A stretch of DNA of 64,000 nt from an uncultured Gemmatimonadales bacterium (lineage in GTDB: Bacteria > Gemmatimonadota > Gemmatimonadetes > Gemmatimonadales > GWC2-71-9), in the NCBI GenBank assembly GCA_947259405.1, contig CAMYLY010000009.1, positions 18,020 to 82,019 of the forward strand. Reading direction: 5' to 3'. Position numbers and translations under genes: made by a program. Shown in pieces: positions 52,833-64,000 of this stretch. Position 1 is the stretch's first letter, and every line of letters starts with the position of its first letter. The notes under the pieces were generated by a model that was given only the letters and a program-made list of their open reading frames with translations, was not told the DNA's origin and ran no database searches.

Positions 52833-53005
52833 AATGCGTTCAGACTCCAAACCGGAGGGTTGCAGTGGTCGTTCGTAAGTTAATGCGCCAAGGGGATTCG
52901 GCTCTCGCGGAGCATGGGCGCGGGGTGGTCAAGGTAGAAATCGCCGGGTGCACATGCAAGTGCATGCAAGGCACCGCAAAATGACTCCGGGAACCAGTTT
53001 ACACA

Positions 53006-53515
53006 TCACAAATCTGTTGTCGGCCGCATTACCGGGAATTCGGCCTCGCGATGACGCGCCGCAAGCGCCGCGTAATGGCGAACAGTTGAGCCGATCCGCT
53101 TCCGCAAGTCATCGTCCACGCTGCCCACCACGCGCCCCGGCACGCCAAGCACGAGAGACCCGGGCGGTACCACCGTGCCTTCCGTCACCACGGCGCCCGC
53201 TCCAACCACCGATCCGGTACCGATGCGCACCCCGTTGAGCAGAATCGCACCCATACCGACGAGGCAGTCGTCGTCAATCGTGCATCCATGGACAATGGCC
53301 CGGTGCCCCACGGCGACCCGCTCTCCCACCGTGCAGGGGACACCTTCATCGACGTGAACCATGGTAAGATCTTGGATGTTGGTCTCCGCACCGATCACGA
53401 TGGCCTCCATATCGCCGCGAAGCACGCAGTTGTACCAGACCGACGCACGGGGACCCAACGAAACCGCCCCGAGAACCTGCGCTCCCGGGGCGATGAAGGC
53501 TGTGGGGTCGATCAT
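53006..53515 (-). CDS. Gamma carbonic anhydrase family protein
   Basis: Hexapeptide repeats, LRGD, NIQD..VH, GH..IVHGC. Confidence 0.92.
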   Translation of the reverse strand: MIDPTAFIAPGAQVLGAVSLGPRASVWYNCVLRGDMEAIVIGAETNIQDLTMVHVDEGVPCTVGERVAVGHRAIVHGCTIDDDCLVGMGAILLNGVRIGTGSVVGAGAVVTEGTVVPPGSLVLGVPGRVVGSVDDDLRKRIGSTVRHYAALAARHREAEFPVMRPTTDL

Positions 53516-55404
53516 CGAGCGCGGCAGGTCAACCGCAACCAGCTCGCGACCGGCTGACCGCCTTTGGAAGCCGGTGTGAAGGTCCCAGAACGAAGGTAGC
53601 GCTGGATCGCTGCCCCGAACCTGGGGTTGGTGGGTCGCTGGGTGAATCGGAACGTCGCAACGCTCCCGTCGTCCTCGAGGCTCACCCACAGTTGGGCCGG
53701 CTGGGGTTTGTCTGCACCCTGCAGTGGAATAACGCAGGCTTGATTTGCCGAAGCCGCCGTATCGAAACAGAAGTTATTCATGTTGTAGCGCGCCGCTTCT
53801 GGATTCGAACATTGCGGCTGCGGAATCCGCTCCATAGCGATGGTCACCGGCACCGTATCGCCGCGCGCAACCTGGATCGTCACATCGAACGGACGGTATC
53901 CGGAGCGTTGCGCCACCACGCGCTGCGCCCCCGGACTCACCTCGACGACGTCTTGATTCACCGGACTCCCGTTGATAGCGACCTCGGCACCACTCGGACG
54001 GCCCTCGATCGCCACCCAACCGGTGGTCGGCAGTGGAGGCACAACAACCGAATCTGGCACGGGCACCGAATCCACCGCGGCGGCGGTGTCGGCGAGCGCC
54101 GTGTCGACGGGTGTGGAGTCGGCAACCGGGAGGGAATCCGCGACCACCGCCGATGTCCGATTGAGGCCGATCTGGCTGAAATCCGGAGGCCACGTCGCCC
54201 CCATGAAGAAATACCAGAACCCTCCCGCGCCGCCGCCGCCCAAGATCAGGATGAGGAACATGCCGACCAACACGCTGCCGCGTTTTCGTTCCTTTGCCCG
54301 CTGGGGCTCGTGCTTCCCTGTCGGGTCGGCCATCGGAATGGGTGTCGTCGGCGTTGTCGGGAGCGAACCCGCCGGGAGAGCGGCCGACCCACGCGCCGGA
54401 GACGGCATGATGGTCGTGGGCAGATCCGAGACGGTCCGAGCCGCGGACGCATCGATCTCCGCCGTCGGCCGCCCCTCCAACCGCGCGACGAGCTCATTCG
54501 CCGTCTGGAATCGGTGGGTTGGGTCTTTGGCCATCATCACGTTGACGACCTCGAACAGCGCGCGTTGGTCCGGAGTAGTCAACTCGGGAACCGGCAACTC
54601 CTCCATGATGTGCTTGTATCCAATCGCGAACGCGTCCTCGCCGTCATACGGCACGTGCCCTGTGAGGCATTGGTAGGTCACCACGCCCAGCGAGTAGATG
54701 TCGCTGCGTCCATCGAGCGGCTGCGCCCGCGCTTGTTCCGGACTCATGTAATGAGGCGTCCCAATGGACATGCCAGTGCCGGTCAGCCGCGTTCCCGTGG
54801 CGGCTTTCGCGATTCCAAAATCCGTCAGGATCGCATGACCGATCTCGTCGAACATGATGTTGTCTGGCTTGATGTCACGGTGGACGATGCCATTCTGGTG
54901 CGCATAGCCAAGGGCGCCCGCGGTCTGTTTTAAGAACGAGCGGATCTCTTCGGGAGGAAGCGCGCCTCGCCGCTGAACCACTTCCGACAGCGACGATCCG
55001 CGCAAGTACTTCATCACGAAGTAGATCACGCGTCCCGACTTCCCGACGCGATAGATCGGGATGATGTAGGGGTGTTCGAGCTTGGCGGCGGTTCGCGCCT
55101 CGCGCTGGAATCGCTCGACAAACTCTTTGTCAAAGGCGAGCGAGAACGGTAGGGTCTTGACCGCGACCTCGCGGTCCAAGTGTTTTTCACGAGCGTGGAA
55201 CACGATCGCCATTCCACCGCGTCCGAGTTCCGAAATGATCTCGTATTCGTTCTTGAGCGCGTCGCGAACGAGGTCGATTTCGCTGACTTCACTGCGTTCC
55301 CCATCAGTCGGCGCCAATGGAGTACTCGTGGACAAATCCAGCCCGCACGACGGACAGAACTTTGCCTGATTCGCAACTTCAGTTCCGCAACGTGAACAGT
55401 ACAC
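53512..55404 (-). CDS. Zn-ribbon Ser/Thr kinase with TM, PEGA and TonB-C-like domain
   Basis: CSRC..FCPSC; LGRGGMA, HRDIKPDN, DFG, MSPE; TM; PEGA; C-terminal FTPASKGGQPV. Confidence 0.9.
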   Translation of the reverse strand: MYCSRCGTEVANQAKFCPSCGLDLSTSTPLAPTDGERSEVSEIDLVRDALKNEYEIISELGRGGMAIVFHAREKHLDREVAVKTLPFSLAFDKEFVERFQREARTAAKLEHPYIIPIYRVGKSGRVIYFVMKYLRGSSLSEVVQRRGALPPEEIRSFLKQTAGALGYAHQNGIVHRDIKPDNIMFDEIGHAILTDFGIAKAATGTRLTGTGMSIGTPHYMSPEQARAQPLDGRSDIYSLGVVTYQCLTGHVPYDGEDAFAIGYKHIMEELPVPELTTPDQRALFEVVNVMMAKDPTHRFQTANELVARLEGRPTAEIDASAARTVSDLPTTIMPSPARGSAALPAGSLPTTPTTPIPMADPTGKHEPQRAKERKRGSVLVGMFLILILGGGGAGGFWYFFMGATWPPDFSQIGLNRTSAVVADSLPVADSTPVDTALADTAAAVDSVPVPDSVVVPPLPTTGWVAIEGRPSGAEVAINGSPVNQDVVEVSPGAQRVVAQRSGYRPFDVTIQVARGDTVPVTIAMERIPQPQCSNPEAARYNMNNFCFDTAASANQACVIPLQGADKPQPAQLWVSLEDDGSVATFRFTQRPTNPRFGAAIQRYLRSGTFTPASKGGQPVASWLRLTCRAR

Positions 55405-55509
55405 GGACCGTCCTCTCTCGAGCCCTGAAGTGTTGGAAACCCCTCAGACCCTGTCAAGCAAGTCAGGGGCCATGGGACGACACGGGCCGGACTCGTTGTG
55501 CAACCAGGC

Positions 55510-58341
55510 TCAGAACGAGGTGCCGAAGGTCACGTAAGCCCTTATATCACCCCTACTTACACCGAGTCCATCAGTCAACGGAACGGCGGCACCTACCCGG
55601 ACCCGCGTGGGTACATCGTACAGGATCCCGAGGTCGGCAATGAGCTCGGTTCCCGCACTTTGCAAGTTGTTCTCGGTCCCACCATCAGAGGCGATTCGGG
55701 CCGTTCCGAACTCATAGAACAGAGTAGCCGAAACCCGGTCGAATACGATGGGGATGATCGGCATGCCGCGACCGATCAAGGCGATGGGGATCCGTGCCTC
55801 CGCGACAGCGGTGAGTGCGCGATCGAAGCCCCCAACTCTCGGGTACCCTCGCAGGGCAAATGCCCGCCTCCCGGTCCCTACGATCAATCCCGGCGCGACC
55901 TCGAAGCGGTCTCCCGACTCGCCACCAACCGCAATGGTCCGCGGTGCCGACCCACCGGCACCACCACCGGTTAGGCGGAGGGCCAGGACCCATCGCGCGA
56001 ATCCCGGGAGGCCAACACCCAGGAACCCGGCAACGGCGCCCCGGGTCTCAAACGACGACGCCCCATCCCTGAGACTCCATTGTCGCTCGTACAGTGCGTC
56101 GAGCCGGACGCCGTTTTCGACCGAAATGGCCAGTGCGGGACGCGAGCGATAGAACAGGCTTCCACTGATGGACGCGGCGAGCGAGGTGGGTCCTTCGAAG
56201 ATCAAAGCACCGGCCGACGACTCGTCGAAGAGCGAGAACTGTTCCAAGCCCGTCGCGAGCCGAACGACTGCGCCCGAACGCCACCAACGGCGCGCCAGCC
56301 TCACGCCCACCGTGGCCGCTTGCTCGCGCTCCCCAAAGGGAACGACCCCCGCATTGGTGAGGAGTCCGAAGCCCAACCATGACTGCCGCACGGAAACGTT
56401 CACGGCTGCCCCCTGCCACCGTTGATGCGCGACGGAGAGCACACCTTCCGTCCGGCCCGTGCTCGGTGCCACCGCAAGCGAGGCGAGGTACTGTGTGCGA
56501 CCGATTGGATCATCAGCAGACGTGAATGCGCCGAGGAACGTGCCCGTCTCACTCTCCACGTGGAGCACGGGATTCCAGTACTTCGGGACCAGAGCGGGCC
56601 AGGGATTGTATCCTCGCTCTTGCACAGCGGCTCGCGGGGCCACCTCCATCGAGGTAGTGGGTTGGGTGACCGTGGGCGCGTCCGCGAGCTGGTCTGGTGC
56701 GAGTTGCATCACGGCCATGCCGTCGTGAAAGACCGACGTGAACACGAGCGACCCATCAGGAAGCTCCTGTGGCGAGCGAGCGCCCCCCAACTCGGTGGTC
56801 AATCGACTGACACGGTCGCTGCCGCGGTCGTAGCGATAGACTTGCGGCAGCCCGGACACCTCACTGACGAACAGTACCGTTCCATCAGGGGCCCACGACA
56901 CATCGGAGAGCAATGCGTTTCCGAGCGTCACGCGGCGAGCTGCACTGGGGTCGGTAAGGGGCCACACAACCAGTTCGCGCCTCCCCTTCAGCAGCGCATC
57001 GCCCGCTCCCCAACCCTCACGCACCGCGATCTCTCCCCAATCGTCGGCGGGCGGAAGATTGACCGGTTCGTGACCGCCGTCGGGATCCAGCCAAAGCGGT
57101 CGGCGCCGACCGTCTTCCACTCGCACGCCGCCGACACGGGCGCCGTTACTGAACGGAGACGTGAAGCGCTCGGTGTTGGAAATGCGTTCCCACGTTTTGA
57201 GTTCACGCCACAGGTACAGGTGGCTGCGGATCGATGCCGGCGACGCGTAGTCCAACTGACCGATGATGAGGGACGTGCCGTGCCAAGCGATGCGGACACC
57301 GGCGTTGACCCGATGGCTCGCCGTCCGCGATGAATCCGCCAAGAGTACCCGGACAGTTGCATCTCGTCGGCCATCGGAATGCAGGTAGGCAAGGGCGTGC
57401 CCCGACGGCGACGCCACCGGTGCGGGTCGCGACAGTAGCCCGCGGGCGAGCACCGTCGCCAGCCCCGTCCCGCTCGGCGGCGTATACGACTCGCGCATGC
57501 GTTTCCACCCAGCGCGCACCGACGTGCCTCCGGCTTCCTGAAGCGGGCTGCCGACGGTCAGCGGCCAGAGTTTGCCAGCTGACCGCTCCACGAAGCGAGA
57601 CGGGAGGCTGTCACCACCGCTGGTAACCTGACTGGCGAAGAACCGCGATCCCCATGCATACGGCCGTTGCCCGCCTGGCCATCGCGGCGACACGAGCGTT
57701 GCGTCCTCAGACCGTGGCCAGACACCTGACGTCGCGGTTGACGCCAACAGCTGGGTGTGAAACGCGCCGCGGACACGACCGGCGTCGGTGAAGCGCGATT
57801 CGTAGTACGTCGCAAGTCCCTCTTTGACCCACGAGGACCGATAGGCATTGGGGAACGTCCACGGAGCCCGACCGAACATATACTGCATGCCGCGCCAGAA
57901 CCCGCGCGTGCGATCGAGATGGAAGACGTGCGTCAACTCGTGCACCAGAACCACGCGAACCCATTCGTCGTAGTGCGCGAGTGCCAGCTCCGTGGCAGGC
58001 GGGGCGAGGAAGATGAACAGCTTGTTGGACGGAAACACCGACGCAGCACCATTGCTGAAGTCCACGTTGTCGAACACGGCGATGTCCACCGTGCCTCGGG
58101 GCGGGACAAGTTCCGACGCCAGCAACCGGTAGGCACGTTCCGCTTCATCAGCCACGCGTTGGACAAGGTGCGCCCGTTCCCGTCGGATATGGATGCGAAA
58201 ATGCTCCGTCTGCCACGTGCTCCAGGTACCGGAAGGGTCGAGTTGCGCTGCGGCAGGCAACGGGGACAGCGCGAGCACGACGATTGGTAACCAGACGCGT
58301 AGCGGCCTGGCCGCCGGTCCTGGACAGCCCGAAAATCGCAT
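55510..58341 (-). CDS. Outer-membrane protein: gluzincin-like peptidase, beta-propeller and Omp85-like barrel
   Basis: Signal peptide; HELTH and EGLA zinc ligands; WAPDG repeat; LRGYP motif; terminal YVTFGTSF. Confidence 0.8.
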   Translation of the reverse strand: MRFSGCPGPAARPLRVWLPIVVLALSPLPAAAQLDPSGTWSTWQTEHFRIHIRRERAHLVQRVADEAERAYRLLASELVPPRGTVDIAVFDNVDFSNGAASVFPSNKLFIFLAPPATELALAHYDEWVRVVLVHELTHVFHLDRTRGFWRGMQYMFGRAPWTFPNAYRSSWVKEGLATYYESRFTDAGRVRGAFHTQLLASTATSGVWPRSEDATLVSPRWPGGQRPYAWGSRFFASQVTSGGDSLPSRFVERSAGKLWPLTVGSPLQEAGGTSVRAGWKRMRESYTPPSGTGLATVLARGLLSRPAPVASPSGHALAYLHSDGRRDATVRVLLADSSRTASHRVNAGVRIAWHGTSLIIGQLDYASPASIRSHLYLWRELKTWERISNTERFTSPFSNGARVGGVRVEDGRRRPLWLDPDGGHEPVNLPPADDWGEIAVREGWGAGDALLKGRRELVVWPLTDPSAARRVTLGNALLSDVSWAPDGTVLFVSEVSGLPQVYRYDRGSDRVSRLTTELGGARSPQELPDGSLVFTSVFHDGMAVMQLAPDQLADAPTVTQPTTSMEVAPRAAVQERGYNPWPALVPKYWNPVLHVESETGTFLGAFTSADDPIGRTQYLASLAVAPSTGRTEGVLSVAHQRWQGAAVNVSVRQSWLGFGLLTNAGVVPFGEREQAATVGVRLARRWWRSGAVVRLATGLEQFSLFDESSAGALIFEGPTSLAASISGSLFYRSRPALAISVENGVRLDALYERQWSLRDGASSFETRGAVAGFLGVGLPGFARWVLALRLTGGGAGGSAPRTIAVGGESGDRFEVAPGLIVGTGRRAFALRGYPRVGGFDRALTAVAEARIPIALIGRGMPIIPIVFDRVSATLFYEFGTARIASDGGTENNLQSAGTELIADLGILYDVPTRVRVGAAVPLTDGLGVSRGDIRAYVTFGTSF

Positions 58342-58546
58342 CGATGGCCGTGGTGGTTGGATCGCGGAACCTACACAATGGCAACGAACTACGCCATCGG
58401 AAGCCGGTTGCCCGGCTCTCAGGCGGGGTGTAGATTGGCCACCATCAGGCCGCTGGAAATCCCGTTGAAACGCAAGGTCACCTGGCCCGAGACTTGAACG
58501 GGAAGTGGCGTCCTTCATTCGTCCCTGAGGCGGGAGGAGCAAACGC

Positions 58547-59449
58547 GTGACGGGACCAGTACACCGAGCCGGCGGAGGGGCCGAGGGCTCGATCTCGCAG
58601 ATCGTGTGTTCGACGTGCGGCAGCACGGCCGTGGCGGGCCTTCCCTTCTGTCCGTCATGCGGCAAGAAGCTGGCTCAACCCGTCGAAGGACGCGCCTGTC
58701 CCCGTTGCGGGACGGCCGCGCCCGAAGATCGGAAATACTGCCCCGCCTGCGGACAGGGTCTGGACGGCATGCTCCGGCCGAGTCAAGCCGCAGCACAGAC
58801 GGCTGCGCAGCACGTGATCGTGGTCGTCGATGACGCCGGCGAGCCCCTGAGCAGACACCCACTCCAAACCGGCGAAACCACCTTGGGGCGCGAGGGCGCC
58901 GACATGGAGTTCGCCGAGGATCCGTATCTCTCGCCCGTGCACCTCAAGTTCACGGCCAAGGAGGAGCAGCTCTTCGTTCGCGACCTGGGGAGCCGCAACG
59001 GGACGTGGGTGTTCATTACCGAACCTCACCGGCTTAGCGACGGCGACCGCATCCTCTTGGGGTCACAGGTGCTCGTGTATCGACGACTCGGATATCCCGG
59101 ACCGCATCCCCCCGAGCGAGACGCTACGCGGCGGCTCGGGTCCTTGGTGCCCAGCGCGGATATCGCCAAGCTGACGCAGGTGCGCAGCGACGGATCGGAA
59201 CGCGACGTGATGCACTTGTCTCCTGGGCGCGACATCGCTCTCGGACGCGAGGACGGCGATTGGGTGTTCCCGTACGACCCGTCGATGAGCGGTCGGCATG
59301 CCGAGATACACTCGGAAGATGCAGATTTCGTCCTCATCGATTCCGGAAGTCGCAACGGCGTCGCCGTCGCCGCTCGCGGCGACGTACCTGCACCGCCCAA
59401 CACGCGCATTCTGGTGGGCGACAAGATGATCCGCGTCGAAGCATCATGA
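58547..59449 (+). CDS. Double Zn-ribbon plus two FHA domains
   Basis: Four CxxC pairs; GR..S..H..DLGSRNGT and GR..SGRH..DSGSRNG. Confidence 0.9.
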   Translation: MTGPVHRAGGGAEGSISQIVCSTCGSTAVAGLPFCPSCGKKLAQPVEGRACPRCGTAAPEDRKYCPACGQGLDGMLRPSQAAAQTAAQHVIVVVDDAGEPLSRHPLQTGETTLGREGADMEFAEDPYLSPVHLKFTAKEEQLFVRDLGSRNGTWVFITEPHRLSDGDRILLGSQVLVYRRLGYPGPHPPERDATRRLGSLVPSADIAKLTQVRSDGSERDVMHLSPGRDIALGREDGDWVFPYDPSMSGRHAEIHSEDADFVLIDSGSRNGVAVAARGDVPAPPNTRILVGDKMIRVEAS

Positions 59450-61230
59450 AGACCTGCACGGTCTGCGGCGCCGAGTGGCCCGACGAGACCAAGTTCTGTC
59501 CCAACGACGGAACGACGCTGCGCTCGACCGAAGGTGCCGACCTGGTCGGCAGTATCATCGGCGGCAACTACCATATCGAGAAGAAGCTTGGCGAGGGCGG
59601 CATGGGTTCCGTCTATCTTGGCGAACACGTCAAAATGGGCCGGAAGAGCGCCATCAAGGTTATGACGCAGTCCATGGCCAGCGATCATGATGCCATCGCT
59701 CGCTTCAACCGAGAAGCGACCAACGCCGCCCGGATCAACCACCCTAACGTGTGCGCCATTTACGATTTTGGCGAAACACCGGAAGGGTTGATCTTTCTGG
59801 CTATGGAGTTCATCGAAGGCGAAGCCTTGAGCGACATGCTGACTCGCGTAAGCATGATCACGCCGGGACGCGCCGCTTTCATTCTGGATCAATGCGCCGA
59901 CGCACTCCAGTCCGCTCACGAATTGGGCATCGTGCACCGCGATCTCAAACCTGACAACATCATGATCACGCAGAGTCGCGGGAAGGACGTGGTGAAGGTG
60001 GTCGACTTCGGGATTGCGAAGGCGATGGGCGGCGAAGAGGGCCAGAAGGTCACCAAGACAGGGCTCGTCGTCGGGACACCCGAATACATGAGCCCAGAGC
60101 AGTTGTCCGGTGACGTCCTCGACGGACGCAGCGACATCTACTCCCTCGGCCTGGTGTTCTTCCGCATGGTCACCGGCACGCTCCCGTTCCCGGCTGAGAG
60201 CGCGCAAGAAACGATGATCAAGCGCCTGACCGACGATCCGATGACGCTCGAGGCAGCGCAACCGGGCGGCAGATATCCGCCGGGACTGCAGGGTGCCATC
60301 GATCGGGCGCTGCAACGCATGCCGGGCGACCGGTACCAGCACGCCAACGAATTCGCTCGCGATGTCCGGCTGACCATTGGGAATGCGAAGGAGATCTTCG
60401 CGCCCCCGACCCTCGACACCGACGCCAAGACGCAGTTGATGGACGCGCAGACCGCCGTGGTCGATGAGAGTACCACGGTGGTCGATGAACATGCCACCGC
60501 TCCAGCGGCGGTGACCAAAGGCTTTACGCGGCAGCTTGCCCCGACCCAAACCACGCCGGCTCAGGCACGTCCTGCCGAAGTGTCGCCGACCACTCCCGCC
60601 ACGCCGGCTCCGATTCCGTCGCCAACAACGGTGACCAAGAAAAAAACGCCCGTCGTGCCAATCGCTGCTGCAGTGCTCGTTGTGGCAGCGGCCGGAACCA
60701 CAGCCGCGGTCATGATGACCGGAGGTAGCGAAAACGGAGCCTCAGAGCCAGTATCGATTCAGCCCCCCTTGGGGACCGACGATTCGACGCAGACCCTCCA
60801 ATCGGCCGCTGGCGATACGGGGGGAGTAGGTTCTCCCGTTGCGACGGGTTCCGAGACGGGTGGCACAACGCAAGCTAGTCCACAATTGGGTGGTGAACCG
60901 CTCGTGCTGGATACAGGTGGAACAGGAGATTCGGGCGTTGCGCCTCCTGCGACCACCGCCGATCCGGCGGAGGTGGACCGGGAGCTTGAGGCGCTGTTGG
61001 ATAGCATCAATGCTGATCCGCAGCAGGTGCGGCAGGCGGCAGAAGCACATTACCAGGATCGGACGCTGCCCAATTCGACACGTGCGTTCGCAGCTTTTGT
61101 AGTCGGTGACTCGTTCTTCGCGGAAGACCGAATGACCGAAGCCTGTCGTTGGCTGGAGGTGGCAATCAGCTTAGATCCGACGAACGCTGTATACCCGAAC
61201 TCGAAGACCCTGTACAGGTGCTCACCGTGA
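59446..61230 (+). CDS. Zn-ribbon membrane Ser/Thr kinase with C-terminal TPR-like helices
   Basis: CTVC..FCPNDG; LGEGGMG, HRDLKPDN, DFG, MSPE; TM; ATGA overlap. Confidence 0.92.
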   Translation: MKTCTVCGAEWPDETKFCPNDGTTLRSTEGADLVGSIIGGNYHIEKKLGEGGMGSVYLGEHVKMGRKSAIKVMTQSMASDHDAIARFNREATNAARINHPNVCAIYDFGETPEGLIFLAMEFIEGEALSDMLTRVSMITPGRAAFILDQCADALQSAHELGIVHRDLKPDNIMITQSRGKDVVKVVDFGIAKAMGGEEGQKVTKTGLVVGTPEYMSPEQLSGDVLDGRSDIYSLGLVFFRMVTGTLPFPAESAQETMIKRLTDDPMTLEAAQPGGRYPPGLQGAIDRALQRMPGDRYQHANEFARDVRLTIGNAKEIFAPPTLDTDAKTQLMDAQTAVVDESTTVVDEHATAPAAVTKGFTRQLAPTQTTPAQARPAEVSPTTPATPAPIPSPTTVTKKKTPVVPIAAAVLVVAAAGTTAAVMMTGGSENGASEPVSIQPPLGTDDSTQTLQSAAGDTGGVGSPVATGSETGGTTQASPQLGGEPLVLDTGGTGDSGVAPPATTADPAEVDRELEALLDSINADPQQVRQAAEAHYQDRTLPNSTRAFAAFVVGDSFFAEDRMTEACRWLEVAISLDPTNAVYPNSKTLYRCSP

Positions 61231-62261
61231 ATCTCTTCGGATCGAAGAACACCGGCATACGCATCAGCGTCTTCGGCAAGACGGATGTCGGCCGCACGCG
61301 GGAACACAACGAAGACTGCTTCATCGTGGCCGACCTCACGCGCCAGAACGCGTCGCTGCATCCAGACGTCCGACAACACGACGTGGGTGCGCATGGCACA
61401 CTCCTGGTCGTGGCGGACGGCATGGGCGGCGCAGCGGCGGGCGAAATCGCGTCGGACATGGCGACGCGCACGATCTACGATCACTTGTTGAGCACGTGGC
61501 TCAAGGACGATGAACCGAGCGCCCAGCAATTCGCCTTCCGGTTGAAAGAAGCGGTCGAAGAAGCCAACGACAAAATCCACCTGTACGCGAAGGAGCATCC
61601 GGACTTGCGCGGCATGGGCACGACTACGACTGCCGTCGGTGTGCTGGGGGATCAGCTGTACCTCACACAGGTGGGCGACTCACGTGCCTACTTGATCCGC
61701 AAAGGCGAAGGCATTCAACTCACCAAGGATCAGTCGCTCATGCAGCGCCTGGTCGACGCGGGAGAGCTCACAGAGGAAGAGGCGGAAAAGTCGGAGCGCC
61801 GCAATATCATCCTGCAGGCCCTCGGGCCCGATCCCAAGGTGCGCGTCGACCTCACCAACCAGCAGATTCGCCAAGGCGACGCCGTGGTTCTGTGCTCTGA
61901 TGGCCTTACAGGCCAAATCACGCGAGAGGAAATCGCCGAGATCGTGGCACAGGACAGCAAGGACCTCGTCGAAGTCTGCTCACAGCTCATTGAAATCGCT
62001 AACGAACGCGGTGGCCCGGACAACATCACCGTCGTGGTTGCTCGGTTCGGCGGCAAGCCGCTCAGAGATCCTAACGACGGGGACGAGGCCGGCCACCAGG
62101 TCTACCCGCTTCTGGACCCCGAATCCACCACGGAACCGGTACCGATCTATCGCGGAAGCCCACCGCCGATCCCGGAGAACAAGGTCGAGATGGTCTGGTC
62201 CGGAGGCCTCGCGGCAATCGTGACCGCCCTTGGCCTTTTCTTCGCGACCTTCGGTTTTTAG
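61227..62261 (+). CDS. PP2C-type Ser/Thr phosphatase (Stp1 family) with C-terminal anchor
   Basis: DVGRTREHNED, VADGMGG, GDSRAY, CSDGL, GGPDNIT; GTGA overlap. Confidence 0.95.
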   Translation: MNLFGSKNTGIRISVFGKTDVGRTREHNEDCFIVADLTRQNASLHPDVRQHDVGAHGTLLVVADGMGGAAAGEIASDMATRTIYDHLLSTWLKDDEPSAQQFAFRLKEAVEEANDKIHLYAKEHPDLRGMGTTTTAVGVLGDQLYLTQVGDSRAYLIRKGEGIQLTKDQSLMQRLVDAGELTEEEAEKSERRNIILQALGPDPKVRVDLTNQQIRQGDAVVLCSDGLTGQITREEIAEIVAQDSKDLVEVCSQLIEIANERGGPDNITVVVARFGGKPLRDPNDGDEAGHQVYPLLDPESTTEPVPIYRGSPPPIPENKVEMVWSGGLAAIVTALGLFFATFGF

Positions 62262-62267
62262 CAGGAC

Positions 62268-63737
62268 GTGAAGCCGCAGCTCAAAATCCTGAAGGGCGCG
62301 CGAACGGGTCACACCCAGGTCTTTTCCAAGTCTCCGATCGCTCTGGGACGTCACCCTGCGGCGGACCTCCAGTTCGATCCGGATCGGGACCTCCAGGTGT
62401 CCGCCCGCCATGCGTTGATCGTGCGTCGCGACGATCACTGGTATGTGCGCGATGTGGGAAGCCGCAACGGCACCTACGTCAACGGCCACAAGATTGCGAC
62501 TGACACTAGACTCGACGACACGGATCAAATCCGGCTCGGCGACGCACAGGGGCCCGTCTTCGAGGTGCGCTTGGTCCCCGACGGGTCACCGGACGGGATA
62601 ACCGCACCCGCACAGCCCATCCCGGCAACCCAGGATGGTGTAAGTTCGGGCGTCGTCACACCCGGCCGCGAACCCAGGCCAACGGCCGCCGGCCAGTCCG
62701 ACGAAGCACGGCCGGCCGGCCCCGCACCACGGGCGTCGAACACGGCAGAACGCATTCGCATAGAGGTCGGGAAGCAAACCCGCAAGCACCGAGCGATGAC
62801 ACTGACGGCCTTTGTCATGTTGCTCGGCGCGGCGACGACGTTCGTCGTCGTCTCGCAGCGCCAGGGAGCAGCCCGGAACGCCGAAGTCGCCGCCATGCGA
62901 GCCAGAACCGACAGCATCCTGCTCGCGGCCAACCAGGCCATGAACGACCTCCAGGGACAGGTCTCGGGTCTGGAGGCACGATTGCGGGAGTCGCTATCCG
63001 ACCTCACGAATCTCCAGGCGCAACTCGATCGCGCCGAGCGGTCGGGTACCGACGTCGAGGTCGACGAGCTACGAAGACAGCTAGCTGACGCGACGCAGGC
63101 CCTCATCTATCAACAGGCCGCAGCCCAAGTCGACTACGCCACGCTCGTCGAAGAGAGCCAACAGACCGTCGCGATGATTTGGGCGCGCTATGCGGACCGC
63201 AGCATCGCGTCGGGAACGGCGTTCGCCGTCCGGCCCAACGGGACATTGGTCACGAACCGGCACCTCGTCACCGGGCGAGACGGAAACCAGCGACCGGTAG
63301 AAATTGCCGTCAAGTTTGCCGATTCTCGACAGGTGTTCCGCGCGCGTCTCCTCGCCACCTCACCCGATGCGGACCTCGCAGTCATACGAGCCGAGGGGAT
63401 CACGACCGCCGTGCCAGTGGTGAAGGGGTTCGGCGGTCCGCCGACGCAGGGCGACCCCGTCGCCATTATAGGATTCCCCATGGGCAGCGAGTTGCCGGGG
63501 GCCGGCACGAATGAGTTCGCTCGGACGACTTTCATTCCCGGCTCGGTCTCAAAGGTCCTGCCCGATTTGATCCAGCTCGACGGCTACGGCGTGCAGGGCG
63601 CAAGTGGAAGCCCCATCTTCGACGAACAAGGGTTGGTCATCGGGGTGCTGTTTGGAGGCGAGGTTGCGAGTGCTGGGCGGATCGTATACGCCGTCCCGGC
63701 GGCACTTGTCGAGCAGCTTCTCAGATCGGTCCGCTAG
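62268..63737 (+). CDS. FHA-TM-coiled-coil-trypsin-like serine protease
   Basis: FHA (GR, SARHA, SRNGT); TM; coiled coil; triad TNRH, DLAVI, GASGSP. Confidence 0.9.
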   Translation: MKPQLKILKGARTGHTQVFSKSPIALGRHPAADLQFDPDRDLQVSARHALIVRRDDHWYVRDVGSRNGTYVNGHKIATDTRLDDTDQIRLGDAQGPVFEVRLVPDGSPDGITAPAQPIPATQDGVSSGVVTPGREPRPTAAGQSDEARPAGPAPRASNTAERIRIEVGKQTRKHRAMTLTAFVMLLGAATTFVVVSQRQGAARNAEVAAMRARTDSILLAANQAMNDLQGQVSGLEARLRESLSDLTNLQAQLDRAERSGTDVEVDELRRQLADATQALIYQQAAAQVDYATLVEESQQTVAMIWARYADRSIASGTAFAVRPNGTLVTNRHLVTGRDGNQRPVEIAVKFADSRQVFRARLLATSPDADLAVIRAEGITTAVPVVKGFGGPPTQGDPVAIIGFPMGSELPGAGTNEFARTTFIPGSVSKVLPDLIQLDGYGVQGASGSPIFDEQGLVIGVLFGGEVASAGRIVYAVPAALVEQLLRSVR

Positions 63738-64000
63738 CGTACCCTCGTCAGCTGACCGAGTACCCGAGGTGCACGCGCGCCCGTAGCAGCCGGCACATTC
63801 CCTGGTAGGCCTTTCATCGTCCGCCATCCCAAGTAGGCAAACGCGACCGCCTCTTTTGCGTCTCCATCGAAGAACATGTCATCGAACGCGCGCAGGGCAC
63901 GAGTGTCGAGAGCCTCGCGCAACGCGCGACACAGCGTGGGGTTGCGAGCGCCTCCGCCAGAGACGACCACGTCCGCCCCGTCCGGCGTCAACCAGCGAGT
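63734..64000 (-). CDS. anmK: Anhydro-N-acetylmuramic acid kinase (partial, 3' end)
   Basis: SGGGARNP, KEAVAFA, GNVPAATGA..VLG. Confidence 0.9.
   Translation of the reverse strand, partial: TRWLTPDGADVVVSGGGARNPTLCRALREALDTRALRAFDDMFFDGDAKEAVAFAYLGWRTMKGLPGNVPAATGARAPRVLGQLTRVR

Follow-up and report, generated by a model that had tools for sequence, protein, structure and literature searches.

Circuits built from Hanks kinases, PP2C phosphatases and FHA domains steer cell-wall growth, division and secretion, and their known outputs are, to our knowledge, cytoplasmic or membrane proteins. The locus described here is located at one end of a 64,000-nucleotide stretch of DNA (the window; G000:C9:18020-82019) from a metagenome-assembled, 61% complete genome of an uncultured Gemmatimonadales soil bacterium. 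On either side of a divergent gap it carries a left arm with two genes, A (a predicted barrel protein) and B (a membrane kinase), and a right arm with four, C (an FHA protein), D (a second membrane kinase), E (a membrane-anchored PP2C) and F, in which an FHA domain is joined through a single transmembrane (TM) span to a trypsin-like protease. The right arm is a true conserved operon in Gemmatimonadales, and its best explanation, to which we assign a probability of roughly 0.55, is a phospho-switch with periplasmic proteolysis as its output, encoded by C-D-E-F with C-E-F as the core, and inserted in a cell-wall-turnover neighbourhood. A and B are neighbours of this switch and possible partners, with unproven coupling to the right arm.

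In composition, the locus is closest to the actinobacterial fhaA-fhaB-pstP-rodA-pbpA-pknA-pknB cluster, a cell-wall and division locus (PMC6554272). Like that cluster, the Gemmatimonadales locus combines two FHA proteins, a membrane PP2C and two membrane Hanks kinases in a cell-wall-linked setting. Unlike it, the locus has no rodA, pbpA or PASTA repeats, its kinases reaching 343 and 318 bits where the PknB/Stk1 model demands 450; one of its FHA proteins is fused through a TM span to a periplasmic S1 protease; and the host is diderm, with an amidase, an Omp85-type protein and recycling genes as neighbours.

As a predicted membrane-tethered S1 protease facing the wall compartment, F resembles serine proteases that hold back or switch on wall hydrolases, namely HtrA of the HtrA-LppZ/Ami3 system (PMC6538288) and MarP of the MarP/RipA pair. 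Both serve as precedents, HtrA by acting against the amidase Ami3 in M. smegmatis (PMC6538288) and MarP by its reported association with RipA. The setting is also similar, in that 15 of 25 relatives carry an Amidase_3 gene at the locus. Unlike HtrA proper, F lacks a PDZ domain; it scores far under the MarP cut-off, and it alone among these proteases carries a cytoplasmic FHA domain. Several F-bearing genomes, moreover, lack the amidase.

The T6SS (type VI secretion system) switch PpkA/PppA/Fha1 likewise links a membrane-bound Hanks kinase with a PP2C and an FHA reader in a post-translational switch at the envelope, and the PEGA part of B resembles a 76-residue chain of the RtkS-PpkA complex 9k1u (Z 8.0). 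FHA, PpkA and PppA sets gate T6SS in other bacteria (PMC12607579), so the kinase, FHA and PP2C genes might gate a secretion or pilus machine (T6SS or Tad/Kil-like) encoded elsewhere, and the FHA domains of F and C do weakly match the T6SS protein TagH (TIGR03354; 39.8 and 32.1 bits). These scores are far under the 120-bit cut-off, and the stretches read between matched genes in the Gemmatimonadota loci hold only the genes named here; no secretion or pilus gene lies beside the right arm in any locus read, in agreement with what an earlier note on the window had remarked from its sequence alone, nor was the right arm found inside a secretion or pilus cluster in those loci, which would have counted against that note's reading (no genome-wide search was made). 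The mapped loci contain no T6SS gene and the output here is a protease, and membership in the T6SS threonine-phosphorylation pathway was rejected on the TagH score and the absence of T6SS genes. We give scarcely any credence to the gating of a distant machine.

A kinase, an FHA protein and a PP2C are also encoded together in the Deinococcus radiodurans vWA/STPK/FHA/FHA-PP2C operon, which, according to a preprint (bioRxiv 10.64898/2026.01.23.701218), differs in having no protease, in serving DNA-damage signalling and in fusing FHA to the phosphatase. In the eLife paper PMC7159879, FHA and trypsin-like domains appear only in unrelated conflict systems. Full-text literature searches, with subscription journals and supplements outside their reach, found no paper on an FHA-protease fusion.

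The FHA-protease operon and its C-E-F core

Two genome sets, each including that of the window, were searched for F and A: one of 41 genomes with 40 relatives, and one of 151 with 150 genomes sampled evenly across the phylum. Neighbourhoods were mapped by tblastn of the window proteins onto 40 extracted loci, with open reading frames read in the gaps only. Genomes are labelled G and extracted loci L; families f1 to f3 belong to one order. Among the 30 extracted loci holding F, on which the right-arm counts are based, E is directly upstream of F in all 30. A kinase occupies the D position in 25 of the 28 loci where this can be determined (contigs end too early in L036 and L037), being absent from L027, L028 and L032, and C is present in 22 of 26 (L013 and L036-L038 undeterminable), being absent from L027, L028, L029 and L032. 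In the window, C and D overlap as ATGA (59446-59449), D and E overlap as GTGA (61227-61230), and E and F are separated by 6 nt (62262-62267). The six genes, their domains and these junctions are thus as the earlier note had listed them, with the divergent gap measuring 205 bp, and its view of the right arm as a tightly coupled kinase/FHA/PP2C operon, with the bitopic FHA-protease as its distinctive product, holds.

F orthologues were found in 62 of the 151 genomes, all in f1 to f3, and in none of 46 genomes of other families at E<=1e-25; protein clusters of both A and F are commonest in Gemmatimonadota. A contig scan with F alone returned four weak loci, among them L006, from a metagenome-assembled genome titled 'uncultured delta proteobacterium' (G172), in which FHA, PP2C and FHA-TM-Trypsin genes stand in a row. 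A second genome of that phylum (G292, L050) has, in order, Zn-ribbon-FHA-FHA, a PP2C 47% identical to E, FHA-TM-Trypsin and an FHA-GAF-adenylate cyclase. FHA-TM-Trypsin is rare in that phylum, with a full-length match in 2 of 121 genomes and a partial one in a third. Scanning metagenomes with the G172 and G292 proteins gave 17 loci, in which only matches to the query proteins were mapped and the flanks are unannotated. Five are too short for gene order to be judged. In all 12 loci whose flank reaches at least 1 kb, a PP2C is directly upstream of F; the Zn-ribbon-FHA-FHA gene comes before the PP2C gene in 11 of the 11 with room for it, and a kinase match occurs in only 1 of the 17, on the opposite strand. 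Since another phylum and the metagenomes also have the triad, there without a kinase gene, the conserved unit is C-E-F; Gemmatimonadales have a kinase gene between C and E.

In nine of the metagenome loci (L059-L067), as in G292 (L050:11155-12981), the triad is followed by an FHA-GAF-adenylate/guanylate cyclase gene, which suggests a link to cyclic-nucleotide signalling in the non-Gemmatimonadota lineage.

Domains were called on the window's open reading frames with Pfam and NCBIfam models at their own cut-offs. Both kinases match PF00069 (B 178.6 and D 173 bits; cut-off 31.7), and the translations of B/D show the motifs VAVK/SAIK, HRDIKPDN/HRDLKPDN and DFG. Their best match among the models is PknB/Stk1 (NF033483; 342.6 and 318.1 bits), which covers the kinase part only and falls short of its cut-off; Pfam finds no PASTA repeats in either protein. 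E matches the Stp1/IreP model (NF033484) with 243.2 bits against 230, over model positions 1-231 of 232, and its translation contains DGMGG, GDS and DN motifs. C and F match PF00498 (80.4 and 66.6 bits; cut-off 20.7), and the best model for the FHA domains of F and C is FhaB/FipA (71 and 67 bits).

The N-termini of B (55344-55404), C (58547-58760) and D (59446-59510) are all Cys-rich zinc ribbons, a module shared by writers and reader; C also has a faint match to a '4-Cys prefix' kinase domain.

In an alignment of 36 F sequences, the phosphothreonine-binding positions G27, R28, S45 and H48 of the FHA domain show no variation, and at least 90% of the sequences retain N67 and the protease triad H332, D369 and S446. 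The Trypsin_2 match scores 78.1 bits. The protein has a single hydrophobic span (residues ~178-197), and we judged its topology, like that of the other membrane proteins, by eye from hydrophobic stretches and flanking charges. The FHA domain is probably cytoplasmic, as it must be to meet phosphothreonine, and the protease probably periplasmic, because basic residues precede the single span and the protease comes after it. A complex prediction with three copies of residues 200-489 scored 0.01 against a mark of 0.42 and is evidence neither way.

Two protease assignments for F were rejected. Pfam finds no PDZ domain in it, and with the HtrA/DegP equivalogs it reaches 38-41 bits where 416-470 are required, which excludes HtrA/DegP (S1C) proper. 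The MarP family has a four-helix membrane anchor; F has one hydrophobic span and scores 55.7 bits against 250 with the MarP model (NF033740). In two genomes the triad itself is disrupted: His and Ser are replaced in G019 (L028) and G021 (L032), and Asp is gone as well in L032. C and D are both missing from three genomes, G019 and G021 among them, and the F orthologues of these two may be pseudo-proteases or decaying genes.

The window's genome encodes a second FHA-protease (C8:31267-33495; L002:148-2376), with 742 aa comprising FHA, FHA, a long linker and Trypsin_2, which is 33% identical to F in the protease part. Comparable matches are seen in many relatives, where frames of ~650-780 aa share about 31-34% identity with F residues ~205-485.

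Both kinases carry a conserved threonine motif in the linker. A threonine in the motif TQ[LV][LMIV] is located 25-40 residues past the kinase domain in 21 of 23 D orthologues, and B orthologues have a TTP[LI]P motif in about 17 of 19 with a readable linker, as counted by eye. Both motifs place a hydrophobic residue at +3, and a hydrophobic residue at this distance after the threonine suits FHA binding.

Kinase sensor plus protease effector is also a combination that an anti-phage or abortive-infection system might use, and B and D match the PADLOC PD-T4-6 and mad6 kinase models (E down to 1e-93), with the protease part of F matching RT-Protease_XI at 59 bits. The PADLOC matches span only generic kinase and trypsin domains, and A and C match nothing. 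The locus occupies a fixed chromosomal place beside housekeeping genes across three families of the order, with no mobile-element gene in the loci read, all of which makes a defence role highly improbable.

Table 1. Features of the locus in window coordinates, with predicted domains and membrane spans
Feature	Position	Strand	Size	Description
Hexapeptide-repeat protein	53006..53515	-	169 aa	gamma-carbonic-anhydrase-like; Pfam Hexapep E 1.8e-16; last gene of the left arm
Kinase B	53512..55404	-	630 aa	Zn-ribbon, Pkinase E 2e-52, one hydrophobic span, PEGA E 1.3e-5, TonB-C-like domain
Protein A	55510..58341	-	943 aa	signal peptide, HELTH, weak PD40, C-terminal ...GTSF
A/C intergenic region	58342..58546	.	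205 bp	divergent, between A and C
Protein C	58547..59449	+		cytoplasmic; double Zn-ribbon (Pfam DZR E 4e-8), two FHA (E 1.4e-22, two stretches)
Kinase D	59446..61230	+		Zn-ribbon (sub-threshold), Pkinase E 1e-50, TM, periplasmic low-complexity stretch, TPR-like tail
Protein E	61227..62261	+		PP2C, C-terminal hydrophobic membrane anchor
Protein F	62268..63737	+		FHA E 2.7e-18, one TM, coiled-coil-like stretch, Trypsin_2 E 1.4e-21
anmK, 3' end	63734..64000	-		anhydro-MurNAc kinase; convergent flank, outside the operon

Proteins A and B and the variable left arm

A belongs to a large family: an exhaustive HMMER search yielded 4218 representative clusters at E<=1e-3, of which 762 reach E<=1e-30. 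Most of them are 930-1050 aa and match end to end. In an alignment of the window protein with 92 of the 150 listed matches, picked for full length, H134, E135 and H138 of an HExxH motif, E174 and E181 are invariant in all 93 sequences. An AlphaFold2 model of A (predicted local distance difference test, pLDDT, 92.8; predicted template modelling score 0.92) places a six-bladed propeller in the middle, like that of TolB (Z 23.1, root-mean-square deviation (rmsd) 2.6, 230 residues aligned), and a 16-stranded barrel at the C-terminus, like that of BamA (Z 24.5, rmsd 4.0, 310 aligned), and also like Sam50 and TamA (Z 20.2 for the latter), with a Foldseek match for the barrel at E 4e-9. The barrel thus resembles those of the Omp85 superfamily (BamA, TamA, Sam50, TpsB). 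Unlike its members, A has no POTRA domains in the model and no match to Pfam Omp85; its periplasmic part would consist of the HExxH domain and the propeller instead. The family profile also matches TolB sequences (E 3.5e-39). A was rejected as a TolB proper (TIGR02800; 28.4 bits against 343), with the likeness confined to the propeller.

These predictions uphold the earlier note's description of A as peptidase, propeller and barrel, in the form of a HExxH (gluzincin-like) domain, a TolB-like propeller and an Omp85-type barrel. For the N-terminal domain the label 'peptidase' is putative and derives from the invariant motif, the only Pfam matches being at motif level (M61, YgjP-like and WLM, E 0.03-0.27). 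No paper on an Omp85 plus PD40 architecture was found in a full-text literature search that left subscription journals and supplements outside. One A orthologue, in the single-contig genome G149 (C1:735009-737832), is broken by one TAG and one TAA, with an intact F nearby, and is probably a pseudogene.

The periplasmic part of B (residues 441-630) was modelled with AlphaFold2 from 11 sequences at a pLDDT of 90. Its PEGA part has a Z of 8.3 to a transthyretin-like domain (VIA-align). For residues ~544-630, which the earlier note had called TonB-C-like, the fold agrees: the TonB C-terminal domain 6i97_E aligns over 83 of 90 residues (Z 7.5, rmsd 2.6), followed by 9ddz_A (Z 7.4), 1xx3 (Z 6.0) and TolA 4g7x_B (Z 5.4), where a VIA-align Z below 8 can reflect a common arrangement. 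At the sequence level, Pfam TonB_C (PF03544) gives 15.7 bits (E 0.021) against a cut-off of 24.6, and Foldseek has no match for the C-terminal model at E<=1e-3.

The linkage of the two arms is consistent. In 36 genomes A and F are on one contig, always 4-9 kb apart and divergent. They are on different contigs in seven fragmented assemblies (G017, G022, G039, G068, G074, G077 and G122), among which the contigs of G022 and G039 end inside the cluster; G017 is an unpublished genome, counted in these linkage tallies only. No genome of the 41- and 151-genome sets has A and F far apart on one contig, and the unlinked arms that would have spoken against the earlier note's arrangement were therefore not seen. 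Across the three families of the order the block reads anmK, then F, E, D and C transcribed towards it, then, transcribed away from it, Y, A, X, B, the gamma-carbonic-anhydrase-like gene and a class II ribonucleotide reductase (RNR) gene. Y and X are two additional left-arm families, read from the B-C gaps of relatives. The RNR gene, a housekeeping gene with no evident envelope tie, is as fixed in place as both arms, and arm linkage within the order is therefore weak evidence of shared function.

The content of the left arm varies. Among 25 relatives with a readable left side, on which the left-arm counts are based, Y is present in 15, A in 14, X in 18 and B in 22. Y, a secreted protein of ~655 aa that ends in an Amidase_3 domain (E 1.7e-36), heads the arm where present, and X (~750 aa), likewise secreted, combines TPR repeats with a GWxTD domain (39.5 bits against 28). 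The complete Y-A-X-B series occurs in G006, G022, G030, G038 and G040, with matched gene ends 23 to 71 nt apart in G038 (L024), and only A-B is kept in the window and in G001. In some f2 genomes (L040-L042 and L046) only E, or C and E, is left beside Y-A. X is located just upstream of B in its 18 relatives (for example L014:4002-6260) and is tandemly duplicated in G020 and G021; a full-text literature search for 'GWxTD' found no paper.

The earlier note had read all six genes as one candidate trans-envelope system. In such a machine, A and the TonB-C-like domain of B would bridge the inner and outer membranes under the control of the right arm. The unbroken A-F adjacency favours such a machine, as do the common strand and 105-nt gap of A and B, the TonB/TolA-like fold of B's C-terminus, a fold that touches outer-membrane proteins in known systems, and the unusually conserved A/C intergenic region. 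Against it, 11 of the 25 relatives keep the right arm without A, and most of them keep B. The C-terminal domain of B is retained where A is missing (L010, L012 and L016) and diverges in genomes that have A (L014, L019 and L023), so that the idea of this domain tracking the presence of A was rejected. A probably also predates the module, occurring without it in eight of eight loci outside the order, and C-E-F occurs without A or B in another phylum. We consider a single six-gene machine unlikely. What remains of the earlier proposal of a self-contained writer/reader/eraser circuit is the operon itself, which is real, with periplasmic proteolysis as the probable outcome. The six genes do not form a single unit, given a left arm that varies, an A that occurs alone and a C-E-F that occurs without A and B.

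The A/C intergenic region is 83% identical between the window and G001 (L009:9184-9387), including unchanged blocks of 25-40 nt, with the flanking A proteins only 55% identical, and may hold a shared regulatory element. Rfam has no matches in 53000-64000, this gap included, and no sigma-70-like promoter match was found in the gap.

The cell-wall neighbourhood

Eight loci outside the order (families f4, f5 and f7 of the same class), chosen for holding A, provide a perspective on the history of the site. In each of them A is accompanied by anmK, RNR or both, and B, C, D, E, F and X are missing throughout. RNR is adjacent in seven, anmK is within a few kb in five and Y is adjacent in two; L051 has murQ, anmK and A in this order on a single strand. 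Read most simply, the older neighbourhood was murQ-anmK-(Y)-A-(gammaCA)-RNR, gammaCA being the gamma-carbonic-anhydrase-like gene, and C-D-E-F, B and X were added to it in the order's ancestor. That they were gained there, and not lost elsewhere, is what this distribution suggests.

Most relatives within the order have anmK as a neighbour, either directly adjacent or no more than a few kb away. The F-side flank in relatives holds anmK with GH3 (NagZ-like) and MFS (AmpG-like) genes, and on the window's contig a murQ-like SIS gene is upstream of anmK (L048:843-1823). The module thus stands between peptidoglycan-cleaving (amidase) and peptidoglycan-recycling genes. The earlier note had taken a hint of cell-wall turnover from the flanking anmK, and this hint is strengthened by the Amidase_3 gene with which the left arm of relatives opens and by anmK/GH3/MFS or murQ-anmK at the other end. 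Given the probable insertion of the module into this setting of cell-wall turnover, its most likely field of action, by guilt by association, is the remodelling of the envelope or of peptidoglycan.

Several points weigh against the reading as a cell-wall phospho-switch. In-order synteny is high in general, as RNR illustrates, and the neighbourhood therefore lends a cell-wall role weak support. In G002, C and B have nothing between them, so that F persists there without Y, A or X at the locus, and Y was found nowhere in G001, G002 and G016, which are 95-96% complete and all keep F (nor was it found in the assembled part of the window's genome). Outside Gemmatimonadota the triad adjoins the cyclase gene, with no cell-wall genes among those mapped. 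The binding and activation steps of the mechanism given below, moreover, are all inferred from sequence.

The high background synteny, the persistence of F in G002 without amidase, A or X, and the FHA-GAF-adenylate-cyclase neighbour in the other phylum would also suit a right arm that is a general phospho-signalling and protease module not aimed at the wall (for example one for quality control or sensor processing), which arrived at this location by an insertion accident. Such an accident is harder to reconcile with hydrolase genes on one side of the insertion site and recycling genes on the other throughout the order, with the entry of a second kinase and a secreted TPR protein into the same locus, and with the wall growth and division that membrane PP2C/FHA/Hanks kinase sets govern in Actinobacteria (PMC6554272). 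On balance, we think a module unconnected with the wall improbable.

The left arm ends in a seventh gene, missed in the earlier note, which encodes a gamma-carbonic-anhydrase-like hexapeptide-repeat protein (149.9 bits with the NCBIfam gamma carbonic anhydrase model, under its cut-off of 250). Its ATG (53515-53513) overlaps the stop codon of B (53514-53512) as ATGA, and by this arrangement the gene is translationally coupled to B. It adjoins B in most relatives, or A where B is absent, throughout the order. Class II RNR comes after it. In three relatives the RNR matches are split into two to five adjacent pieces (L016:15357-17820, L027:17871-19411 and L028:15301-17860), which could be frameshifts, assembly errors or insertions.

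A proposed inside-out switch

For the preferred reading, a phospho-switch acting on periplasmic proteolysis, we propose the following sequence. Gemmatimonadales would have added kinase D inside the operon and a second kinase, B, across the divergent gap. D and B would autophosphorylate their conserved juxtamembrane threonines (TQLM in D, TTPIP in B), and the FHA domains of F and C would dock on the resulting phosphothreonines. Docking would alter the position, clustering or activity of the periplasmic protease of F, and E would erase the phosphothreonine mark. The signal might cross the single helix of F by oligomerisation through the coiled-coil-like stretch, which is a guess. The net output would be inside-out, with cytoplasmic phosphorylation governing periplasmic proteolysis. 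Processing of the locus amidase by F was rejected as the sole mechanism: the amidase cannot be the only target of F, because Y is absent from G001, G002 and G016.

A more general and more tentative proposal, which we hold to be possible though doubtful, is that the C-E-F triad is an undescribed inside-out device present in at least two phyla. In such a device, the FHA domain of F would read the phosphothreonine that any Hanks kinase writes on cytoplasmic or membrane partners, E would erase it, and a change of assembly would switch the periplasmic proteolysis of envelope enzymes; the Gemmatimonadales version would have captured two kinases and could time wall hydrolases in division.

Apart from the switch, the locus draws attention to A as a member of a large uncharacterised outer-membrane family in which an invariant zinc-peptidase motif would be united with an Omp85 barrel and a TolB-like propeller. 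The C-E-F core has a simple make-up, turns up in distant lineages and lends itself to tests with purified domains. If the reading of F is true, a protein that joins a cytoplasmic phosphothreonine reader to a periplasmic protease would provide a direct route from phosphorylation to extracytoplasmic proteolysis, and inside-out proteolysis of this kind would be the reverse of the usual outside-in regulated proteolysis.

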